From NCBI GenBank assembly GCA_041660165.1, contig JBAZWW010000004.1, positions 14,839-78,838 on the forward strand: a stretch of 64,000 bases of DNA. The letters run 5' to 3'. The notes beneath the pieces were generated by a model. The model was not told where the DNA came from. It worked only from the letters and a program-made list of their open reading frames with translations, and ran no database searches. This DNA is from Patescibacteria group bacterium. GTDB taxonomy: Bacteria; Patescibacteriota; Patescibacteriia; UBA9934. This document shows, piece after piece, positions 6,590-61,221 of the stretch; positions within the stretch are counted from its first letter, which is position 1, and every line of letters begins with the position of its first letter. The translations under genes and the position numbers were made by a program.

Positions 6590-6620
6590 GGGGTCGAGAC
6601 ATGGCTCGACCCCTACGGCG
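6590..6620. repeat. 31-nt palindromic element, intergenic copy
   Basis: GGGGTCGAGACATGGCTCGACCCCTACGGCG between the 5192-6571 ORF and ndk. Confidence 0.7.
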
Positions 6621-6631
6621 CTCGCGTGCCA

Positions 6632-7099
6632 TTAAATACCCTCGCCGAAATGGAACTTGTCGGTTAACTTTTCGTATGCAAAAATCTCATCATCCTTAAA
6701 GAACCGCTTGATTTCAACTTTAGCGGAGTCTACGGAATCAGATGCGTGGACCATGTTTGAGGGGACGTTCATGGACAGATCTGCGCGGATGGTGCCGGCG
6801 TCAGCCACGCGGGGGTTTGTAGAGCCAACAATAATGCGCACTGTTTCAATGGCATCCAGTCCTTCAAGCACCATGGCGATTATCGGCGTCTGCATCATGA
6901 AGCCAAGCAGGGACGAAAAAAACGACTTGTCCTTCAAATGACCGTAATGCTCAGTCAGCGTGGCTTCATCAAGGTGCGCCATTTTTATGGCCACGATCTT
7001 CAAGCCCTTGCGCTCAAATCTGCCGATCACCTCTCCTGCAAGCTCGCGCTGTAAAGCATCTGGCTTCACGAGCACGAGTGTCTTTTGAATTTCTGCCAT
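6632..7099 (-). CDS. ndk: nucleoside diphosphate kinase
   Basis: 155 aa, …LVLVKPDALQR…NMVHASDS…, NDK signature including the active-site His region. Confidence 0.9.
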   Translation of the reverse strand: MAEIQKTLVLVKPDALQRELAGEVIGRFERKGLKIVAIKMAHLDEATLTEHYGHLKDKSFFSSLLGFMMQTPIIAMVLEGLDAIETVRIIVGSTNPRVADAGTIRADLSMNVPSNMVHASDSVDSAKVEIKRFFKDDEIFAYEKLTDKFHFGEGI

Positions 7100-8949: not shown

Positions 8950-10199
8950 AGGTTGAGAACAGCGAACGGCAAGCTAGCCATGGCGTCGATCACTCGGAGA
9001 ATACATTCGAGGAAGAACCAGCCAGGGAGAGACAGGAGGCCCCCTCCTACTCCCCCATAAATGGGGGAGAGTACGTGGGTGATCACTCCCGTAGTGCCGG
9101 CGGACATGGCGTAAGGGAGAAAAGGTAGGACGAGCAAGTTCGTAAAAGGCCCGATGATCGATAGCCGATGAAAGCCAAAAATAATTACTGGCAAGGTGGC
9201 GAGGGTGGCCGCCAGCGTACACGAAAATGATTCGCGCAAGCCAAATGTTTCGGGTATCCATTTAAGTCTCTCGGCGAGAGGTTTGGCGAATGCCATGAGG
9301 CCCGCCGTGGACAACACCGAAAGTTGGAACCCCGCATCATCCCGTAGAATCCTTGGCGAGAAAAAGAGCATGATAGCAACCGTCAGCAACAGCGCATTCC
9401 AACCCGAACTTTTTCGTCCAAGCTGAGACGCGGTGATGGCGATGGCGCCCATGATGCCCGCGCGCATAACCGCCCCTTCCCCGCCAGCAAGAATGACAAA
9501 TCCGGCAATGGCGCAAAGCACAAAAGGAAACGCATACTGCCGTTTCAAACCCGCATAAATGAGAAATGCCAGCGCAAGCGAGGACACCAGCGCCACGTTA
9601 TACCCGCTCGCCGCCACCACGTGCGAGGTGCCCGTTCGCACAAAGCGCTGTTTCCAATTATCAGGAAACGCGTTGTCGCCGATGAGCAAACCGGCCAACA
9701 ATTGCGCATGCGGTTCGCCATACGTTTTTCTGATCTCGGTTACAACACGCTCGTGAATCTTGCCGAGTACTATCCTTGGTCCCATCTTCACGCCTCGCGC
9801 CAACACAAACGGCTCGCTTCGGGAATAGCACTGCGCAAAAATACCTTTAGCTGCCAGAAATCTGTCATATCGAAAACCATCAAACGGTTCAGGAGACTCT
9901 AGATCGCAATGCACGCCGATCTTATCGCCCAGCTCGCCATGAGAATAGAGTGGAACGAATGCTAACACCTTATCGGCAACCGGCGCGCCATCCACTATCA
10001 GATGTTCAAGGGTCAACTGCTCGCCCTTCTCACCCACTGCCCGTTTCATGATGATGCCCGTGACGCTAGCGTTTTTGCTGAGGTGAAAAGCAACAGAATC
10101 TGGCCGAGGCTGAAACCCCGGATAAAACGAATAGACCGCCACGCCGAAAATAAAAACGACGAGCAAGGCTCTTAAGGCTTTGCTCGGCGTCATCTTCAT
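8946..10199 (-). CDS. comEC: ComEC N-terminal membrane (competence/DUF4131) domain protein (split comEC, part 1)
   Basis: Polytopic membrane protein with a ComEC competence-domain-like sequence. The stop overlaps the start of the MBL-domain ORF. The start codon is uncertain (10193-10199) to avoid overlap with the leuS stop. Confidence 0.75.
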   Translation of the reverse strand: MKMTPSKALRALLVVFIFGVAVYSFYPGFQPRPDSVAFHLSKNASVTGIIMKRAVGEKGEQLTLEHLIVDGAPVADKVLAFVPLYSHGELGDKIGVHCDLESPEPFDGFRYDRFLAAKGIFAQCYSRSEPFVLARGVKMGPRIVLGKIHERVVTEIRKTYGEPHAQLLAGLLIGDNAFPDNWKQRFVRTGTSHVVAASGYNVALVSSLALAFLIYAGLKRQYAFPFVLCAIAGFVILAGGEGAVMRAGIMGAIAITASQLGRKSSGWNALLLTVAIMLFFSPRILRDDAGFQLSVLSTAGLMAFAKPLAERLKWIPETFGLRESFSCTLAATLATLPVIIFGFHRLSIIGPFTNLLVLPFLPYAMSAGTTGVITHVLSPIYGGVGGGLLSLPGWFFLECILRVIDAMASLPFAVLNL

Positions 10200-12799
10200 C
10201 ACACAACGAAATTCACAATCTTGCCCTTCACTTGGATCACTTTTTTCGGCTCGCACGTGAGGAATTTCTGAACGTTAATGTCTGCTCGAGCAAGCTCTAG
10301 GACTGATAAATCTGATAGGGCCGATGGGACTAATAGGGTGGCGCGGAGCTTGCCGTTTACCTGAACAGCAATTGAAACATTCTCATCCACTAAAAGCTTC
10401 TCATCTGCCTCCGGCCATGCTTGTTCCTCAACAAACCCCCTCTCCCCCATCTTCTCCCAAAGCTCATTCGCAAGATGCGGGGCGAACGGGACAAGGATGC
10501 GCAAGAACAGGGCAAAGCTTTCTTTCGAGATGCCCTTCTCCTGCGCCTCATTCACAAATGACATCATGGATGAAACAGCGGTGTTGAATTTGAAATGCTC
10601 GATATCCGCTGTGACTTTGCTGATGGTTTTGTGCAGAGCACGGGCCACCTCGGAGGCCGAGACGGGGTCGAAACGTAGTTCGACCCCTACGGCGAGGGCC
10701 TTCTCGGACAAACGCTCGATCTTATCCAAAAATCGTCGAACACCAATCACTCCGTTGGTGCTCCACGGTACTGGCTCCTCAAAAGGCCCCATGAATAACT
10801 CGTACACACGCAGAGTGTCGGCACCGAACTCCTTCACGATCTCATCCGGATTCACCACGTTGCCCTTTGACTTGCTCATCTTTGTTCCATCTTCAGACAT
10901 GATGAGGCCGTGGGAGTGACGACGAACATACGGTTCGCTCGTCGGCACGAGTCCTTGATCAAATAAAAACTTATTCCAGAAACGCGAGTACAACAAGTGA
11001 AGCGTGGTGTGTTCCATCCCGCCGTTATAAAGGTCAACCGGCATCCAGTACTTAAGTGCTTCTTTCGAAGCGAATGCTTCGTCATTGTGCGGATCCGCGT
11101 ACCGCAAGAAATACCAGCTTGATCCCGCCCAGTTCGGCATCGTATCGGTTTCCCGCCTTGCCGGACCACCACATTGAGGGCACGTTGTGTTTACGAATGA
11201 CTCGATGGATGCGAGCGGTGATTCGCCGGTGTCCGTGGGTTCGTACCGTTCAACCTGAGGGAGTTCGACGGGGAGTTGAGAGTCAGGGACGGCGATCCAG
11301 CCGGCCTGAGACTCCCCATGGCCACCCTGAGACTCCCCCGTAGCCCCCTCTTGGAAAGAGGGGGAGCGCCCATCCTGAGAGACAGAGCGCCCGTTCTGAG
11401 CACAGCGCTCGCAAAAAACGAGTGGAATTGGCTCGCCCCAATAGCGCTGGCGAGAAAAAACCCAGTCGCGGAGTTTGAAGGTAGTTTTCTTTTTGCCTAA
11501 ACCTTTTTCTTCAAGCCACTGGATTATTTCCTTCGTTGCCTCATCAGAAGTCATCCCATCGAACTGACCTGAATTTATAAGCCTGCCACGATGAGAGTAA
11601 ACACTTTCACCCATCTCAACGCTTTTCTTAATAACTTCAAGAATCCCCGCTTCATCTGACGCTTTATACGTCGTCATCCATTCCCTAACTCCATTCCCTA
11701 TAACAGCAGGAAGAACAACTTCCTTGAATTTCAACTCAAATTTCTTCGCGAAGGCAAAGTCGCGCTCATCATGGGCGGGGACGGCCATGATGGCGCCGGT
11801 GCCGTAGTGCGGGAGGACGTAGTCGGCGATCCAAACGGGAATTTGCTCGCCGGTAGCGGGGTTCGTAGCATAGGCACCAGTGAAGACGCCGATTTTTTCC
11901 TTTGAGTCATCGCCACGTTCGATTTCGGTTTTTTTCTGAACCGAGAGCACATATTTTTCTACCGCTTTCTTCTGCCCGCCAGTAGTCAACGTAGCGACGA
12001 GGGGATGCTCTGGCGCGAGGACGAGGTACGTGGCGCCGAAGATCGTGTCGGGGCGGGTCGTGAAGACGGTGATGGGGTCGATACTTGGATCGACCCCTAC
12101 GGCACGGAATTCGATCTCCGCGCCTTCGCTTCGGCCGATCCAATCCTCCTGTTGCTTTTTGATCTTCGGCAAATAATCGACGTCTTTAAGGTCGTCAATC
12201 AACCGATCGGCATATTTTGTGATGGCAATCATCCACTGCTCCTTCTCGCGCCTCTCAACGGCCGTACCGCAACGCTCGCAACAACCGCCGACAACTTCCT
12301 CGTTCGCAAGACCGATCTTGTCCTTTGGGCACCAATTGATGAGCGCCTTGGCTTTGTAGGCCAGCCCCGCTTTGAAAAATTGCAAAAACTGCCACTGCGT
12401 CCAACGATAATATTTTGGATCCGTCGTATTGATCTCCCTTGACCAATCAAAACTGAAACCAATTGATTGGAGTTGCCGTCTAAAATTATCAACATTCTGT
12501 TTGGTCACCACGCTAGGATGAACACCCATCTTAATGGCGTAATTCTCCGTAGGCAAACCGAAGGCATCCCAGCCCATGGGGAACAACACATTTTTTCCCT
12601 CCATTCTTTTCTTGCGCGCAACAACATCAAGCGCCGTATAACTGCGCGGGTGCCCCACGTGCAGGCCCTCGCCCGACGGGTACGGAAACTCGACCAAGAC
12701 ATAATACTTGTCTTTGCCGGAATCCTTGGCCTGAAAAATACCAGACTCTACCCAGCGCTTCTGCCACTTGGGATCAACTGACGAATGGTCGTACGACAT
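10199..12799 (-). CDS. leuS: leucyl-tRNA synthetase
   Basis: About 866 aa with a HIGH-like motif (PYPSGEGLHVGHP), KMSKS (KMSKSKGN) and a LeuS editing-domain sequence. It contains two in-frame copies of a 31-nt palindromic element (see findings). Confidence 0.95.
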   Translation of the reverse strand: MSYDHSSVDPKWQKRWVESGIFQAKDSGKDKYYVLVEFPYPSGEGLHVGHPRSYTALDVVARKKRMEGKNVLFPMGWDAFGLPTENYAIKMGVHPSVVTKQNVDNFRRQLQSIGFSFDWSREINTTDPKYYRWTQWQFLQFFKAGLAYKAKALINWCPKDKIGLANEEVVGGCCERCGTAVERREKEQWMIAITKYADRLIDDLKDVDYLPKIKKQQEDWIGRSEGAEIEFRAVGVDPSIDPITVFTTRPDTIFGATYLVLAPEHPLVATLTTGGQKKAVEKYVLSVQKKTEIERGDDSKEKIGVFTGAYATNPATGEQIPVWIADYVLPHYGTGAIMAVPAHDERDFAFAKKFELKFKEVVLPAVIGNGVREWMTTYKASDEAGILEVIKKSVEMGESVYSHRGRLINSGQFDGMTSDEATKEIIQWLEEKGLGKKKTTFKLRDWVFSRQRYWGEPIPLVFCERCAQNGRSVSQDGRSPSFQEGATGESQGGHGESQAGWIAVPDSQLPVELPQVERYEPTDTGESPLASIESFVNTTCPQCGGPARRETDTMPNWAGSSWYFLRYADPHNDEAFASKEALKYWMPVDLYNGGMEHTTLHLLYSRFWNKFLFDQGLVPTSEPYVRRHSHGLIMSEDGTKMSKSKGNVVNPDEIVKEFGADTLRVYELFMGPFEEPVPWSTNGVIGVRRFLDKIERLSEKALAVGVELRFDPVSASEVARALHKTISKVTADIEHFKFNTAVSSMMSFVNEAQEKGISKESFALFLRILVPFAPHLANELWEKMGERGFVEEQAWPEADEKLLVDENVSIAVQVNGKLRATLLVPSALSDLSVLELARADINVQKFLTCEPKKVIQVKGKIVNFVV
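10665..10695. repeat. 31-nt palindromic element, leuS copy 1 (in-frame)
   Basis: GGGGTCGAAACGTAGTTCGACCCCTACGGCG; read on the minus strand it encodes AVGVELRFDP within LeuS. Confidence 0.7.
12074..12104. repeat. 31-nt palindromic element, leuS copy 2 (in-frame)
   Basis: GGGGTCGATACTTGGATCGACCCCTACGGCA; it encodes AVGVDPSIDP within LeuS, in the same frame as copy 1. Confidence 0.7.
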
Positions 12800-24830: not shown

Positions 24831-27800
24831 ATGCCGACTCCAATGGAAATACGTTTTCGCAACAAGGCATTCAGAATGATCTGGAGCGTTTGTTTACTTA
24901 TCGGACTTTCTTTTTCCGGTCTTTTAGTGGCGCGCGCTACAACTCCAAATCCAGGGCATCCTTGGGCAGGCGTTGGGGACGGTGTCTTTGCCATCACCGG
25001 CCCCTCAATTCTCCGCACCTTCACCTTTCCTGACGCGGACGCAACCGTTCTGACGTCGCTCACAAATGATTTTGACCGCGCCACTGCCGGCGCGCTGACG
25101 TTCGGAAATACAAACGCCACCTCCGTCAGCGTCTGCAACTCCCTGGCTTGTGACACTGTGGATATTGCCACAAATGCAGACGCGGACACCGTCACCATAG
25201 GCGATGCTCTAGACAGCGTTGCGCTTGCTTCAGCAAACTGGAGCATTACCGCGCCGGGAGTTGCCACCTTCTCCTCTCTTGGCCTCACCGGAGATCTTGA
25301 CCTGGCTACGCACATCATTACGAATATTGGCAATACCGGTACGGACTTTGTTGCCACTACCGGAGCACTTAATCTAGCGGGCGTCCTCACTGCAAACGGC
25401 GGAATTATCGTTGCAGCGAACCAAAACTTTACTATCGACGCTGGAACGGGAACGGCGACGTTCACAAGCACGGGCGGCACTTCGTTTGCTCGTAATTTAT
25501 TTTCATCCGGCACAAACGTCATTGCGGCCCAATTTGGAAGCGGATCTACGTCAGGGTTCACTGCTGACCAGTATGGTGGAGCAGTCCGGTTCAATGGCTC
25601 GGGTGTGGCATGGGGTGATATGTCATATTACCCAAATGGTGGAGCCAGCGGAAGCCAAGGAAATTTCAGACTCTCTACAACTGGTGGAGTACTCGCAACG
25701 ACACCAAGCGGTAAACTCGGGATCGGAGAATTATATTCAGTGGGTAACGTCGGCATTGGAACTGCGGCGCCAACTCGCATACTAGATATCGTCGGAGGTA
25801 GTCCCCGATTTTATAACTCCACCACGCCAACCTACAGCAGTTCAGTAAACTTAGGAGTGACCGCCCTTGACCTTGTAAATCGCGCCGCCAACGGCTCTGT
25901 TTCTGGCCTTCATGTTTACATGAGCGGAACAAATTCTGGAACGTTTCTCACGAGTACAGCGAGTTCTACCGGCTTCTGGTCTTCTGGCGCAAGATTTCAC
26001 GGTTCGGGTCTTTATGTTCCTACTGAAACTACCGCAACATCAATCATGGAAAATGCCGGAGCCATTCAATTTCTTTATGGTACTGGTCTAACGCCAGGAA
26101 CCACGACAGCATTAACTGAGTCGATGAGAATTTCAACCACCGGAAACGTAGGAATCGGTACCACGACACCAACAAAGCAATTAACTTTTGGTCAAGTGGC
26201 AGCTGATCCTATTCAAATCCGTCGCGACACAACATCCCAAGGAAATCCGGCGGTGGGCACAGGTATCTCATGGACGTGGAATAACGCAGCGGAGAACGAT
26301 AACACATGGGCAGCCATTAGAGCCATCATGCCTGGTAGCACTAATTCCCATTTAACTTTTTCAACAACCCCCGTCGCGGGTGGTGCGGCGGGTTTACTGG
26401 AAAGAATGAGAATTGAAGATTCAGGAGATGTTGGCATCGGGGATGCTACCCCGGCCTCAATGTTCACCGTGGGCAATGGTGATCTCTTTCAAGTAAACTC
26501 AAGCGGTGCTATTGCGGCCGCAACGGGAATCATCACGAGCGGGGCATATGTCCAAACGTACACTGGGACAGGAAATGCGGCCTCCATCACATCTACCTCA
26601 ACCACAAATGGCTCAAAAGGCCTCATTATTCAAAACACCGGTGCTGTCACCGGAACTGGCTACGGTGGCATGTTCATAAAATCTGGGGTATCTACAACCA
26701 ATGTGGGTCTCTACGCTTCCGCCTCCGGTGGAACAAATAATTACGCGGCCATTTTTGATGCGGGATACGTAGGAATCGGAACCGCGAGTCCGATAGCAAA
26801 ATTAAATATACAGGGCAGTTGGGCTCAAACCCTACTAGATGGCGACAACGTTGTCATAAGAAAACCAAACTACGCCGGAGGCGGGTGGGCCAGAACTTTG
26901 ATGAATTTCCAAGAATATGACGGAACGACAATCACTAGCTTAGGAGCACTCGGCACTAACAATACCTTCGTTTACGGATTCATTGGAGCCGCCTACAACG
27001 ACGCCGCAATCCAGTGGTACCCCGATAAAACCGTTACCCTCGGTGGCAACGTCACCACCGTAGGTAGCGTTGGTATTGGGGATACCACTCCGGCCTCCAT
27101 GCTCACCGTGGGTAACGGCGACCTCTTCCAAGTAAACTCAAGCGGTGCTATTGCGGCGGCAACGGGGATTATCACAAGCGGGCAATACGCGCAAACTTTC
27201 GCCGGCACAACAACCGCGGGAGCTACAATCACCGCGAACTCGCTTACAACCGGTACGGCACTCATTATTCCTCACACGACATCAGTCATCGCATCCGGTG
27301 GCTCGCTCATTCGAGCATCCTCATCATCCGTTGATACTTCAACAACGACAGGAACGCTCCTTGACCTTGCGTCAACCGGTTCAACCGCAGGAACGATTGC
27401 TTTGATCACGAATAACACCGCTCTTTTTACCGGCATTAGCGAATCAATTTCAAACACGGGTCTGACCACGGGTACAGGACTCGCCATTACCGGCGGGAGC
27501 ACAATTACCACAAATGGTGAACTCGTTAATCTCGACATAAGCACCTCCACCGCAGGACAGGCACTCAACATCCAAGGAACAGGCAACTATGCCGGTACCG
27601 GACTTGTATCCATCGTAGAAAATAATTCGTCAATGACGAGCGGTATCGGGCTCCTTCTCAGTAACGTAGTGACCGGCGGAAATACAAACTCCCCACTTAT
27701 CTCCCTTCAGGGAAACGGCTACACCGCAATTGGCCCTACGAACATTACCGGTGCGTTTACGCTTCAAACCATTCCGTCCAATGGCTCAGCGGGCAAACTC

Positions 27801-29282
27801 ATGATCGCTCAGACTGGCTGGGGCGTGGCAGCGGCCAATGATCTTTCCATTTCTGAAACCGGTGCCGTTGTGACAAGAGGCGGTGTCACTACCGGTGCCG
27901 GTACCCCTGACATTGCGGAAAACGTACCCGTGTCTGACCTCACGCTAGAAAAGGGCGATGTCATGGCTCTTGATACCTCCGCAACCGGCGACGGATCACT
28001 TTACAACAACTTCAAAGCAAAAAAAAGCCAGTCCGCATATGATAGCCAGCTCCTTGGTGTCGTTTCAACGTCTCCAGGTCTCATCCTCAACGGGCCGGAC
28101 AATGTTGCGGATGAGAACATGAGCAAACCGAACGAACGGCTTCTTGCACTTGCCGGCCGTGTTCCGGTAAAAGTCTCTGATCAAAATGGACCGGTAAAAC
28201 AAGGCGATTATCTTACATCCTCTTCAACTCCCGGCGTCGCAATGAAAGCAACGCATGCTGGTGCTGTCATTGGACAGGCACTTGAAAATTGGGACACAAC
28301 GTCTGGCAAGACCCAGGTACTTATCAGCGTAAAACCGGGATATTACAACGGAGAAAGTTTGAACGAAGTGGCAGGAACATCAGACCAAATCCTTGCGAAG
28401 CTTCTTGCGGATCAAACAAGCGGAGGAGCACTGACCGCATCAGCCGAGCTACTCACCGGACGCATCGCGGCAGGACTCGAGATCATCACACCGAGCATCA
28501 CCTCAAAGGGATTGAGGATCGACAACATCACTGCGCTCAATGACATCATCTCATTCCAGTCTGACATCGCATTTATTGGCCGGCCGTTCTTTAACAAAGA
28601 CACCGGTGGATTCGCCGTTATTCATACTGGCGACACTTCAGTACACGTCGCGTTTGAAAAACCATATATCGCAACACCTGTTGTTCAAGCGTCAGTGACA
28701 TTCGACGAACTCGCAGATCCCATCGCCCAAGCGCAAGCCGAAACAGATTACTTTGCGAGCGGAACACAGCTCATCATCACCAGAAAATCTCTAGCGGGAT
28801 TCACCATCATGCTGAACGTGCCCACAACAAAAGATCTGAAGATCAACTGGCTAGCACTCGCTATCACGGACGCTCGAACAGATGAGTCCGTTCCCACGTC
28901 AACCGCACCTGTTACTGCCTCAATTAATCCGGTGACAACGATTGATCCAGCGCCCTCTGCCCCTACTACTACAATAGATCCTGCACTCACCACATCAACC
29001 ACGACGACCGTTGTTGATCCAACAGCTTCAACTTCAACCACCACCACGGTTACAGACCCTACCGCAGTAGTCACAGATCCAGCAGTAACCGCAATTGATC
29101 CAGCACTCACAACTACAACAGCCACCGTTGTGGATCCCACGGCAACAACCGTCGATCCTACACTCACAACTACATCAACTACCGTCGATCCGACAGTCAC
29201 CACCGTTGACCCCGCACCTGCTCCAGCCCCTGCTCCCGATCCGGCTCCGGCTCCCGCACCCGATCCTGCACCGGTTATTTAA
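24831..29282 (+). CDS. giant secreted protein with tail-fibre/hemagglutinin-like Gly-rich repeats and a C-terminal Thr/Pro-rich tandem-repeat tail
   Basis: 1483 aa with an N-terminal signal/anchor. It carries repeated modules …GIGTTTPTKQLTF…, …GIGDATPASMFTVGNGDLFQVNSSGAIAAATGIITSG… (twice) and …GIGTASPIAKLNIQG…. The C-terminus is [TVDP/TTT] repeats followed by PAPAPAPDPAPAP. Confidence 0.8.
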   Translation: MPTPMEIRFRNKAFRMIWSVCLLIGLSFSGLLVARATTPNPGHPWAGVGDGVFAITGPSILRTFTFPDADATVLTSLTNDFDRATAGALTFGNTNATSVSVCNSLACDTVDIATNADADTVTIGDALDSVALASANWSITAPGVATFSSLGLTGDLDLATHIITNIGNTGTDFVATTGALNLAGVLTANGGIIVAANQNFTIDAGTGTATFTSTGGTSFARNLFSSGTNVIAAQFGSGSTSGFTADQYGGAVRFNGSGVAWGDMSYYPNGGASGSQGNFRLSTTGGVLATTPSGKLGIGELYSVGNVGIGTAAPTRILDIVGGSPRFYNSTTPTYSSSVNLGVTALDLVNRAANGSVSGLHVYMSGTNSGTFLTSTASSTGFWSSGARFHGSGLYVPTETTATSIMENAGAIQFLYGTGLTPGTTTALTESMRISTTGNVGIGTTTPTKQLTFGQVAADPIQIRRDTTSQGNPAVGTGISWTWNNAAENDNTWAAIRAIMPGSTNSHLTFSTTPVAGGAAGLLERMRIEDSGDVGIGDATPASMFTVGNGDLFQVNSSGAIAAATGIITSGAYVQTYTGTGNAASITSTSTTNGSKGLIIQNTGAVTGTGYGGMFIKSGVSTTNVGLYASASGGTNNYAAIFDAGYVGIGTASPIAKLNIQGSWAQTLLDGDNVVIRKPNYAGGGWARTLMNFQEYDGTTITSLGALGTNNTFVYGFIGAAYNDAAIQWYPDKTVTLGGNVTTVGSVGIGDTTPASMLTVGNGDLFQVNSSGAIAAATGIITSGQYAQTFAGTTTAGATITANSLTTGTALIIPHTTSVIASGGSLIRASSSSVDTSTTTGTLLDLASTGSTAGTIALITNNTALFTGISESISNTGLTTGTGLAITGGSTITTNGELVNLDISTSTAGQALNIQGTGNYAGTGLVSIVENNSSMTSGIGLLLSNVVTGGNTNSPLISLQGNGYTAIGPTNITGAFTLQTIPSNGSAGKLMIAQTGWGVAAANDLSISETGAVVTRGGVTTGAGTPDIAENVPVSDLTLEKGDVMALDTSATGDGSLYNNFKAKKSQSAYDSQLLGVVSTSPGLILNGPDNVADENMSKPNERLLALAGRVPVKVSDQNGPVKQGDYLTSSSTPGVAMKATHAGAVIGQALENWDTTSGKTQVLISVKPGYYNGESLNEVAGTSDQILAKLLADQTSGGALTASAELLTGRIAAGLEIITPSITSKGLRIDNITALNDIISFQSDIAFIGRPFFNKDTGGFAVIHTGDTSVHVAFEKPYIATPVVQASVTFDELADPIAQAQAETDYFASGTQLIITRKSLAGFTIMLNVPTTKDLKINWLALAITDARTDESVPTSTAPVTASINPVTTIDPAPSAPTTTIDPALTTSTTTTVVDPTASTSTTTTVTDPTAVVTDPAVTAIDPALTTTTATVVDPTATTVDPTLTTTSTTVDPTVTTVDPAPAPAPAPDPAPAPAPDPAPVI
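28900..29280 (+). repeat. imperfect tandem repeats (about 27-33 nt units) encoding a Thr/Pro-rich low-complexity tail
   Basis: Reiterated gatcc(a/t)gca…acaac(t/c)ac… units, translated as TIDPALTTSTTTTVVDPTASTSTTTTVTDPTAVVTDPAV…. Confidence 0.7.
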
Positions 29283-46412: not shown

Positions 46413-47078
46413 ATGCCTTTCCTATTGATCGACAAACCCGCGGGGATCACGTCACATGATGTGGTCGACAAAGTTCGCAAAATTACCGGCGAGAGAACTG
46501 TGGGCCATGCTGGGACGCTTGACCCGTTTGCCACGGGGTTGCTTATTGTTGGGGTGGGACGGGACTCAACCAAACAATTATCAACGTACTTGGGGATGGA
46601 TAAGGAGTATGAGGCCACGTTTGTGATCGGAGCAACCACCGAGACGTTGGATCCGGAAGCGCCCGTCGTGGTCGCGCCAAGGGTCGATACATGGATCGAC
46701 CCCTACGGCGAGATTCGTTCCGCCATGAAAAAATTGACCGGTGAAATCTCCCAAATCCCCCCGATGCATTCGGCCATTAAGGTTGGCGGGAAGAAATTGT
46801 ACGAACTCGCCAGAAAAGGCCAAACAATCGAAGTTGCCCCAAGAAATCTCACCGTTCACTCATTCGAATTACTCGAAAATCCGGATTTCTCTACCTGGCC
46901 AATCACCTTGAAGGTCAGAATCGCCTGCTCCTCCGGCACGTACATTCGAGCGCTTGCTAGAGACCTTGGCGTTCTTTTGGGCACAACGGGCTACGTTTCC
47001 AGTCTACGCCGGACCAAAATCGGCGAATATTCCGTAGCTTCTGCAAAAACCCTTGAAACCCTTTCTAACCCTTTATAA
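46413..47078 (+). CDS. truB: tRNA pseudouridine(55) synthase
   Basis: …GHAGTLDPFATGLL… catalytic Asp motif; 221 aa; contains a copy of the 31-nt palindromic element (46681-46711). Confidence 0.9.
   Translation: MPFLLIDKPAGITSHDVVDKVRKITGERTVGHAGTLDPFATGLLIVGVGRDSTKQLSTYLGMDKEYEATFVIGATTETLDPEAPVVVAPRVDTWIDPYGEIRSAMKKLTGEISQIPPMHSAIKVGGKKLYELARKGQTIEVAPRNLTVHSFELLENPDFSTWPITLKVRIACSSGTYIRALARDLGVLLGTTGYVSSLRRTKIGEYSVASAKTLETLSNPL
46681..46711. repeat. 31-nt palindromic element, truB copy (in-frame, opposite orientation relative to the gene)
   Basis: aGGGTCGATACATGGATCGACCCCTACGGCG; it encodes RVDTWIDPYGE within TruB. Confidence 0.7.
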
Positions 47079-53483: not shown

Positions 53484-53559
53484 TGGTGCACCGGGCGGGA
53501 CTCGAACCCGCGACCAATAGATTAAGAGTCTACTGCTCTACCAGCTGAGCTACCGATGC
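53484..53559 (-). tRNA. tRNA-Lys (anticodon CTT)
   Basis: The reverse complement folds as a cloverleaf: acceptor gcatcgg/ccggtgc, D-arm agctcagctggtagagc, anticodon loop cuCTTaa, T-arm ggttcgagtcc, and an encoded CCA. Confidence 0.8.
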
Positions 53560-53627
53560 ATGCTCGGCGGAAAGTATGCCAAATGCTTTGACGCTGGTCA
53601 AGATTTTTGCTAGTATTCAGGGGTTAT

Positions 53628-53704
53628 GCGGTGTTAGCTTAGCTGGATAGAGCATCTGCCTTCGAAGCAGAGGGTCGGGGGTTCGAATCCCTCACACCGC
53701 ACCA
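53628..53704 (+). tRNA. tRNA-Arg (anticodon TCG)
   Basis: Acceptor gcggtgt/acaccgc, D-arm tagcttagctggatagagc, anticodon stem tctgc/gcaga with loop cuTCGaa, T-arm ggttcgaatcc, and an encoded CCA. Confidence 0.8.
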
Positions 53705-60818: not shown

Positions 60819-61221
60819 ATAAATTATAACAGTCGGTGTGGATAAATATTGACCAAACTGCCAGTATTCTGGTATTTTAATGAAGGAATTGCCCCGTATC
60901 CAAACTGTGGCGTTTATCGCCGCTTTCCCGAAAGGGATAGGATGCGAGGTTGCGGAAATCAGAAAATATGCTATACTCTAGCTACATTCGGGATTTTCCC
61001 GCGGCCCCGTCCTCGCAAGAGGGCGGGGAACATGTTTTTAAAGGGAATAGAGCTTTCTAAAACCCTCCTTAACCTTTTGGAAATCGCTGTCATCAAGTGA
61101 CCCCATTTTTGAAGAAAGCCTCCTGTAATCAATGGTTCGTAACTGGTGGAGACAAACGTTCGTCATAATTCCCTTTGCTTTTGCATAGCCTCCATCTCTA
61201 AACACTTCCTCACGTCATGGC

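Follow-up and report, generated by a model that had tools for sequence, protein, structure and literature searches.

Repetitive extragenic palindromic (REP) sequences have been divided into two super-families, tagged GTAG and CGTC (Di Nocera 2013, PMC3733652). The GTAG type, as portrayed in the studies that treat these REPs and their REPtrons (Nunvar 2010, PMC2817692; PMC3733652), is a palindrome of 20-40 nt with an unpaired 5′ GTAG at its foot, and is linked to a REP-associated tyrosine transposase (RAYT). Such REPs occur as single units and as dimers, the intergenic ones are placed at most 20 bp from the stop codon upstream, and some are found in frame inside genes, including those for tRNA synthetases and a tRNA pseudouridine synthase. 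In all, 24 GTAG families have been published, with stems of 6-13 bp and with sub-families that are separated by complementary changes. Here we describe four copies of an element of this kind in a 64-kb stretch of DNA (the window, meaning the whole stretch analysed) from contig JBAZWW010000004.1 of a Patescibacteria group bacterium. We estimate, at a probability of roughly 0.85, that these copies are members of a GTAG-tagged REP family in a genome of the Patescibacteria (Candidate Phyla Radiation, CPR), and that this family is spread and maintained by a RAYT and filtered by selection.

Two further described systems bear on this comparison. TnpA-REP subclass 2.4, which equals RAYT group 4 of Bertels (Quentin 2018, PMC6006769; Bertels 2017), abounds in Cyanobacteria and in Bacteroidetes and features three G-C pairs at the foot of the REP stem, double-foot REPs, and in-frame REPs within the tnpA-REP gene itself (PMC6006769). 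The Rickettsia palindromic elements (RPEs) also lie in frame within functional genes, where they leave short peptide decorations, and a first-pass annotation of the window had likened the present copies to these selfish palindromes while judging them far shorter. That likeness is supported and can be sharpened. RPE-1 measures about 100-150 bp, and RPE-4 and RPE-6 have been re-classified as CGTC REPs with no known transposase (PMC3733652), whereas the present element is 30 nt long, bears a GTAG tag and has a candidate RAYT cognate.

The existence of in-frame REPs within genes (PMC3733652) and inside RAYT genes (PMC6006769) is already known, and no new mechanism is proposed here. Instead, what is noteworthy about this system is its phylum, the mostly intragenic position of its copies, and the presence of three REPs from two families in one essential synthetase gene. 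A literature search found no report of REP/RAYT systems in CPR bacteria or Patescibacteria, and no host from these lineages is found in the available parts of the GTAG REP surveys (PMC2817692, PMC3733652).

A GTAG-tagged hairpin with compensated stem pairs

The repeat was searched as GGGGTCGA-N8-TCGACCCC-TACGGC, a pattern that occurs exactly three times in the window and a fourth time with one mismatch (AGGG). All four matches lie on the + strand (Table 1), and the GTAG orientation that is proper to a REP is read on the - strand. Two copies reside in leuS, one in truB, and one in the spacer downstream of ndk. The chance expectation derived from 100 dinucleotide-preserving shuffles is zero matches, in agreement with the assertion of the first-pass annotation that four copies cannot be chance. 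Less stringent searches, either for the palindrome or for only the tail, return the same four window copies and no others, and GCCGTAGGGGTCGA is the sole 14-mer that occurs four times in the window. The annotation had described a 31-nt element at position 10665. The element and its location in leuS stand, but the repeat unit is 30 nt long and this copy starts at 10664.

Read on the - strand, every copy has the form (GCC)-GTAG-GGGTCGAN-6-nt loop-N'TCGACCC. The stem is a perfect, G+C-rich helix of 8 bp whose foot consists of three G-C pairs, and GTAG is placed directly at this foot, such that in most copies the last G of the tag forms a ninth pair. At 30 nt, this stem-loop falls within the 20-40 nt size range of short-palindrome REPs. 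Folding of the copies as single-stranded DNA gives energies between -9.7 and -12.4 kcal/mol and z-scores as low as -5.3. Compared with the GTAG REPs described in the surveys, the copies are mostly intragenic and occur about once per 14-16 kb, and the loop has 6 nt rather than the 2-3 nt of many families.

The LeuS and TruB proteins of the window are 100% identical to proteins encoded on a 120.8-kb contig of a metagenome-assembled genome (MAG) labelled ‘Patescibacteria group bacterium’. Across 185,579 species-representative genomes, the exact 30-mer has one match, on an unrelated Clostridiales contig. A metagenome scan with the exact 30-mer yielded 11 loci. The element of the window is carried by five of them (L003, L005, L009, L010 and L011; GC 51-56%), and the leuS and truB neighbourhoods of the closest orthologues supplied further relatives (L013-L018). 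This repeat, hereafter family A, occurs 0-5 times per 20-kb locus in these relatives. Specifically, its copies there occupy the leuS and truB sites known from the window, reside in parB, grpE and an rsmB-like gene, or follow stop codons.

The covariation analysis drew on 23 copies, taken from the window and 11 related loci (12 sequences in total); the closing (eighth) stem pair had been left free in the search pattern. This pair is CG in 10 copies, UA in 10, AU in two and GC in one, and is unpaired in none. A second varying stem pair (13/28) is UA in 21 copies and CG in two. The covariation score is 0.224, compared to 0.092 for shuffles (0/500 reach 0.224) and at most 0.145 for slid partners. 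Double compensatory changes are seen at orthologous leuS and truB sites, and variants of the element are thereby distinguished by complementary stem changes, as are the published sub-families. Because the closing pair varies with compensation and is never unpaired, what is maintained is the hairpin and not the sequence alone. GTAG itself is present in 4/4 window copies and in 18/23 family copies; the remaining tags are GTTG (three copies), GTAC and GTAA, which is consistent with decay.

The same DNA is read in three combinations of frame and orientation in LeuS, TruB, ParB, GrpE, RsmB and RAYT proteins, and is also intergenic. Since these three readings occur in unrelated proteins, and since other copies are non-coding, the element is a DNA-level repeat, and the idea of a protein motif was rejected. 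Of the five stop-free frames of the element, three are in use and the others are Arg-rich; a TAG is present in the sixth frame. Copies lie within genes in three of four cases in the window and at about 8 of 12 independent sites when related loci are included. The GTAG strand is the G-rich strand (lagging-strand template) at 7/8 independent sites, a bias that is not significant and is confounded with gene orientation. It fits a single-stranded-DNA mechanism, which is suggestive only, and a second, unrelated REP family (family B, described below) is biased the opposite way.

A RAYT-type gene that carries the element

An open reading frame (ORF) of L003 (4777..5403, 208 aa) encodes a Y1_Tnp protein (Pfam, E 8e-9). 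Its HUH motif (NHIHG) and tyrosine motif (YIRRNP) are both conserved in the alignment of homologues, and the protein has the features expected of a RAYT, namely the HUH motif and catalytic tyrosine (Y-x-x-x-N/Q) in an IS200-like fold. The best NCBIfam model is ‘REP-associated tyrosine transposase’ (45.7 and 50.1 bits), compared with 22-24 bits for the IS200 model. E. coli TnpA-REP (4ER8) is the sole PDB relative found with a profile of the protein family, in a match that spans all three motifs (E 1.3e-3). There is a single copy of the gene, and no tnpB partner is present in its 20-kb neighbourhood.

Two in-frame copies of the REP are found inside this gene, inverted with respect to each other, with tags outward (head-to-head). 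The first is located after strand beta-1 and before the HUH motif and encodes VGVDPCIDP, whereas the second is located between the HUH and tyrosine motifs and encodes GSIHGSTPTA. Homologues down to 42% identity exhibit the same two kinds of loop. Among them is P0122, a protein 87% identical to that of L003, which bears the JGI name RayT and an NCBI source label of a Patescibacteria MAG. Its gene is carried by a 257-kb contig (L015) and includes the same two internal REPs.

The accessions of P0122 (MFA5945679 / MFA6590905) are in the same numbering blocks as those of the window’s LeuS (MFA5945909 / MFA6591165) and TruB (MFA5945941 / MFA6591197). Because these blocks are shared, and because the truB copy (CGCCGTAGGGGTCGATCCATGTATCGACCC) and the first internal REP of the L015 RAYT gene agree at 30/30 positions, the cognate RAYT is probably encoded in the genome of the window. 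If so, this genome would combine a RAYT with the same REP, as is expected of a REPtron, with two copies inside each of the L003 and L015 genes. Copy number in the presumed genome is four in the 64 kb of the window plus two in 20.6 kb of the RAYT contig.

Another hairpin, flanked by direct TTAC repeats (TTAC-GGATCGAC-atatga-GTCGATCC-TTAC) and conserved between the two loci, precedes the RAYT start codon by about 20 nt (4727-4760 in L003 and about 9950-9985 in L015), and an intrinsic-terminator-like hairpin is present 3′ of the gene. TTAC is the target tetranucleotide of IS608, and the TTAC-flanked hairpin could represent either a site of regulation or the relic of an end.

By published description, the system resembles subclass 2.4 in its three G-C foot pairs, in its in-gene REPs, one of which is between the HuH and Tyr motifs, and in a double-foot REP on L010. 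It differs from this subclass in that the L003 and L015 RAYT genes have two internal REPs only, with none flanking, and in that the first copy precedes the HuH motif. The short L010 contig that bears the double-foot REP (GTAG-GGGAGGGTC-tga-GACCCTCCC-CTAC, 1474-1502) also carries two family A copies. The head-to-head pair within the RAYT gene also recalls the REPIN, an inverted REP pair that has been proposed as a mobile unit (Bertels and Rainey 2011). However, the window copies are singletons in one orientation, and between the two REPs inside the RAYT gene there are about 190 nt of coding sequence and not a short spacer.

By analogy with REP/RAYT systems, including E. coli TnpA-REP (4ER8), we infer that the hairpin would form in single-stranded DNA, probably on the lagging-strand template, where the Y1 HUH transposase would recognise the hairpin together with its GTAG guide. 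Cleavage and rejoining of hairpin DNA by the RAYT would then allow copies to spread and to be maintained. In a densely coding genome, most insertions would fall within genes, and survivors would be those that are in frame, that avoid the TAG-containing and Arg-rich frames, and that are positioned in tolerant surface loops. Such copies would persist as peptide decorations (AVGVDPxIDP, GVDTWIDPYG and GSIHGSTPTA), and intergenic copies would be retained where other REP families also have them, a short way downstream of stop codons.

Host genes and orthologous sites

Table 1. REP copies in the window and the genes that contain or precede them
Feature	Positions	Strand	Description
leuS (leucyl-tRNA synthetase, 866 aa)	10199..12799	-	Host of three REPs from two families
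REP family A, leuS site 1	12074..12103	-	Exact pattern match; encodes AVGVDPSIDP just before the TTRPDT motif
REP family A, leuS site 2 (anticodon-binding domain)	10664..10693	-	Exact pattern match; encodes AVGVELRFDP
REP family B	11340..11364	+ (antisense to leuS)	GTAG-CCCCCTCTT-gga-AAGAGGGGG; unrelated to family A
truB (tRNA pseudouridine-55 synthase)	46413..47078	+	Host of one REP
REP family A in truB	46680..46709	- (antisense to gene)	One-mismatch match; gene strand encodes RVDTWIDPYG
ndk	6632..7099	-	Pfam NDK, E 7.6e-50; upstream of the intergenic REP
Intergenic REP family A	6590..6619	-	Exact match; in 60-nt spacer between ndk stop (6632) and ATG (6571) of next ORF

The two family A copies in leuS are in the same frame, 1410 nt or 470 codons apart, and encode exactly the peptides that the first-pass annotation had read. 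On the - strand, site 1 has the sequence GCC-GTAG-GGGTCGAT-ccaagt-ATCGACCC-C, and its DNA hairpin folds with -9.8 kcal/mol (z -4.7). The setting of this copy is a hypervariable hairpin ahead of TTRPDT, and L014 carries at the same site a variant REP, GTAC-GGGCCGAC..GTCGGCCC, with two compensated stem changes. Site 2 has the sequence GCC-GTAG-GGGTCGAA-ctacgt-TTCGACCC-C, folds with -9.7 kcal/mol, and is common to L013 and L014, where the closing pair is C-G instead of A-T. Both sites are shared with orthologues, at a whole-protein LeuS identity of 70% (BLASTP) or 83% (alignment). More distant orthologues of LeuS and of TruB are without the element, and the site 2 REP is missing from such LeuS proteins.

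The third REP in leuS, from family B, is embedded in a lineage-specific LeuS insertion of about 32 aa (..SPSFQEGATGES..) that is missing from L013 and from T. thermophilus LeuS. L014 also has family B copies, in its leuS and comEC genes, and L009 has one right behind the parB stop codon. The comEC gene adjoins leuS, and ComEC is present in the orthologous loci.

Other small palindromes occur near site 1. In L014, an extra one (CCCCCTTTTAGGGGG, 10690-10725) that encodes PLLGG lies directly upstream of the site 1 variant REP, and peptides like GG(A/P)(E/R)GVV occupy the site 1 loop of other LeuS orthologues (P0003 and P0039). It seems that this loop is a hot spot for the insertion of short palindromes.

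The truB-site REP is shared by P0242 (known as protein only), L016 and L017, whose TruB identity is 81-86%. In L016 and L017, its closing pair is C-G and its tag has decayed to GTTG. The site is REP-free in L018 and in six other close orthologues. In L017 (5185-6574), a reverse transcriptase (RVT_1) adjoins a bAvd-like gene, which suggests a diversity-generating retroelement. It lies beside infB in this one relative and is missing from that place in L016 and L018.

In the spacer downstream of ndk, the GTAG tag is 15 nt past the ndk stop codon (the GCC-led 30-mer is 12 nt past it), with about 22 nt between the end of the stem and the ATG of the next ORF. The hairpin of this copy folds with -11.8 kcal/mol (z -4.8). 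Intergenic copies in L014 have the GTAG tag 6 nt past the stop codons of an FMN-reductase gene and rpsL, which gives a range of 6-15 nt past stop codons for intergenic copies, and L018 carries one copy between two genes.

Among other host genes, parB of L009 carries the element in the reading that encodes GSIHGSTPTA, and copies are also present in the rsmB-like gene of L014 and in an unannotated 658-aa ORF of L010. In grpE of L011 (2486-2563), the REP plus 9 nt is arranged in tandem as a 39-nt unit of 13 codons, such that AVGVDPSIDP is encoded twice. The protein has NGAVGVDPSIDPV twice near its N-terminus.

When the solved structures of LeuS and TruB are included in the alignments, the REP segments all map to regions of variable length. 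By such comparison of sequences, the copies are lineage-specific and loop-located, and to this extent they coincide with lineage-specific loop insertions in LeuS and TruB, as the first-pass annotation had envisaged. They are not, however, clean additions of fixed length. Compared with its nearest REP-free orthologue (L013), leuS site 1 reads F-RAVGVDPSIDP-ITVF versus F-GD-IAVF, a gain of 27 nt, and truB shows a net gain of three to five codons (+9 to +15 nt) over REP-free orthologues. With these values from codon alignments, and with flanks that vary by lineage, a clean 30-nt insertion was rejected.

Some copies resemble others in their own genome. In L014, the closing pair is C-G and the 3′ extension is TCTC in all copies, orthologous sites included, and the flanks of leuS site 2 in the window (CGCC...GTCTCGG) are those of the RAYT-borne copies. 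Based on these few copies, the pattern hints at within-genome homogenisation or re-insertion of REPs.

The core GTAG-GGGTCGAT-..-ATCGACCC, usually with a longer stem (ATG..CAT), is also observed, singly or in duplicate, on high-GC (0.53-0.70) contigs of other taxa, including a Clostridiales genome (L001, L002, L004, L012 and L019-L031). In some cases, the core is part of a longer conserved repeat, of which L004 has two identical copies of about 80 nt that are 321 nt apart. The viral-contig scan returned the core as single copies on 13 high-GC contigs, which are not informative for the genome of the window. No RAYT was found on L001, L002, L004, L012 or the viral-contig loci L019-L031.

Three other features of the window were recorded. 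An Rfam DUF3800-IX RNA match is present at 60891-60954 (+), with a score of 45.5 bits (gathering score 36.8). An ORF of 1483 aa at 24831-29282 (+) has internal direct repeats, including 151-nt units that are 639 nt apart (80% identical) and 43-nt units, and its product is probably a repetitive surface protein. Divergent genes for tRNA-Lys(CTT) and tRNA-Arg(TCG), at 53484-53704, are the sole tRNA genes in the window.

Alternative explanations and implications

Several observations weigh against assigning these copies to a RAYT-driven REP family. Transposition by the RAYT is a prediction in this system, and has been shown in vivo for hardly any RAYT. At 46-50 bits, the protein scores under the curated cut-off of 80 for the NCBIfam model REP_Tyr_transpos. 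No RAYT gene is present in the 64-kb window, where a tblastn search with the RAYT gives matches only to REP-encoded peptides, and the placement of P0122 in the same genome relies on adjacent accessions and REP identity, not on a shared contig. REPs that flank the RAYT gene in inverted orientation would be expected of a REPtron, but none is found within about 1.5 kb in L015 or about 1 kb in L003, and the inverted pair is instead inside the coding sequence. Likewise, most copies are intragenic where REPs are predominantly extragenic, and their number is low, with six in about 85 kb of the presumed genome, compared to classical REPs that often exceed 100 per genome. Finally, length gains over REP-free orthologues are not constant, and the insertions are not clean.

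One alternative is that the copies are functional hairpins selected by the host, such as terminators, mRNA stabilisers or protein-binding sites, with no involvement of a transposase. Pairing is indeed kept by compensatory changes, the same leuS and truB sites are occupied across orthologues at the protein identities given above, and intergenic copies reside just past stop codons, where REPs elsewhere stabilise the upstream mRNA (PMC3733652). However, the copies are found in both orientations relative to transcription and in variable loops of unrelated essential genes, no Rfam family matches any REP site, and no T-run follows the intergenic copies of the window and L014. Since such a function also leaves the asymmetric GTAG tag and the element-bearing RAYT gene unexplained, we consider it unlikely, although exaptation of some copies is possible and is compatible with the REP/RAYT reading. 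Less probable again is an origin as remnants or ends of autonomous insertion sequences (IS) of the IS200/IS605 type, or as their miniature derivatives (palindrome-associated transposable elements, PATEs), rather than as REPs of a domesticated RAYT. These systems share with ours a Y1_Tnp/IS200-like HUH enzyme that acts on single-stranded hairpins with a tetranucleotide as guide or cleavage site, their ends are likewise sub-terminal hairpins with a nearby tetranucleotide, and the TTAC-flanked hairpin upstream of the RAYT gene could be viewed in this manner. Yet the locus offers no bounded IS-like unit, only a single gene copy without tnpB in its neighbourhood, and isolated 30-nt hairpins instead of left and right end pairs around 100-300 bp. 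In addition, the REP-transposase model outscores the IS200 model by the bit scores given above, and a GTAG foot is the signature of REPs (PMC3733652; PMC6006769).

Inverted pairs of words could also be DNA uptake sequences (DUS), uptake signal sequences (USS) or other recognition sites, including those of restriction enzymes or other proteins. TCGA and GTCGAC are palindromes of the restriction type, and ComEC is present. The DUS of Neisseria are often in inverted pairs, and USS are found within genes in preferred frames. However, the arms show no enrichment on their own: of the 10 occurrences of GGGTCGA on the two strands, where about eight are expected by composition, 8 are within the four palindromes. 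This near confinement of the arms led us to reject an identity as DUS or USS. The density of about one per 16 kb is far under that of uptake sequences (about one per kb), the compensated variation of the closing pair indicates a structure rather than a fixed word, and the GTAG tag and RAYT would again be unexplained. The recognition-site explanation is therefore very improbable. Chance similarity, a convergent protein motif or an assembly artefact is scarcely credible, since only the low copy count in the window (four) speaks for it. Against it stand the shuffles without a match, the use of three frames together with non-coding copies, and the presence of orthologous-site copies in independent assemblies from different samples.

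A more specific proposal can be built on the REP/RAYT reading, although in its entirety we judge it doubtful. It holds jointly that this REP/RAYT system operates mainly within the coding sequence of a reduced, gene-dense CPR lineage, that the same loops of essential genes are repeatedly filled or renewed through ongoing RAYT-mediated turnover or conversion, and that the RAYT gene, with its two internal hairpins as its only cognates, is a self-contained REPtron. In closing pair and 3′ extension, copies at orthologous sites tend to match the variant of their own genome. This tendency would imply that such sites undergo turnover or conversion and are not inherited passively. If true, a REP/RAYT system centred on coding sequence would actively generate variation in the protein loops of CPR bacteria.

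Regardless of whether this proposal is correct, the REP/RAYT reading would extend these systems to the Candidate Phyla Radiation. The copies in leuS and truB serve as a natural example of a transposase-associated hairpin that is tolerated in frame in essential translation genes, and in which compensatory evolution is visible at orthologous sites. The same reading would explain odd, lineage-specific peptides (AVGVDPxIDP, GSIHGSTPTA and SPSFQEGATGES) that recur in unrelated proteins of Patescibacteria. Such REP-encoded peptides could mislead homology searches, domain annotation and alignment-based phylogeny.

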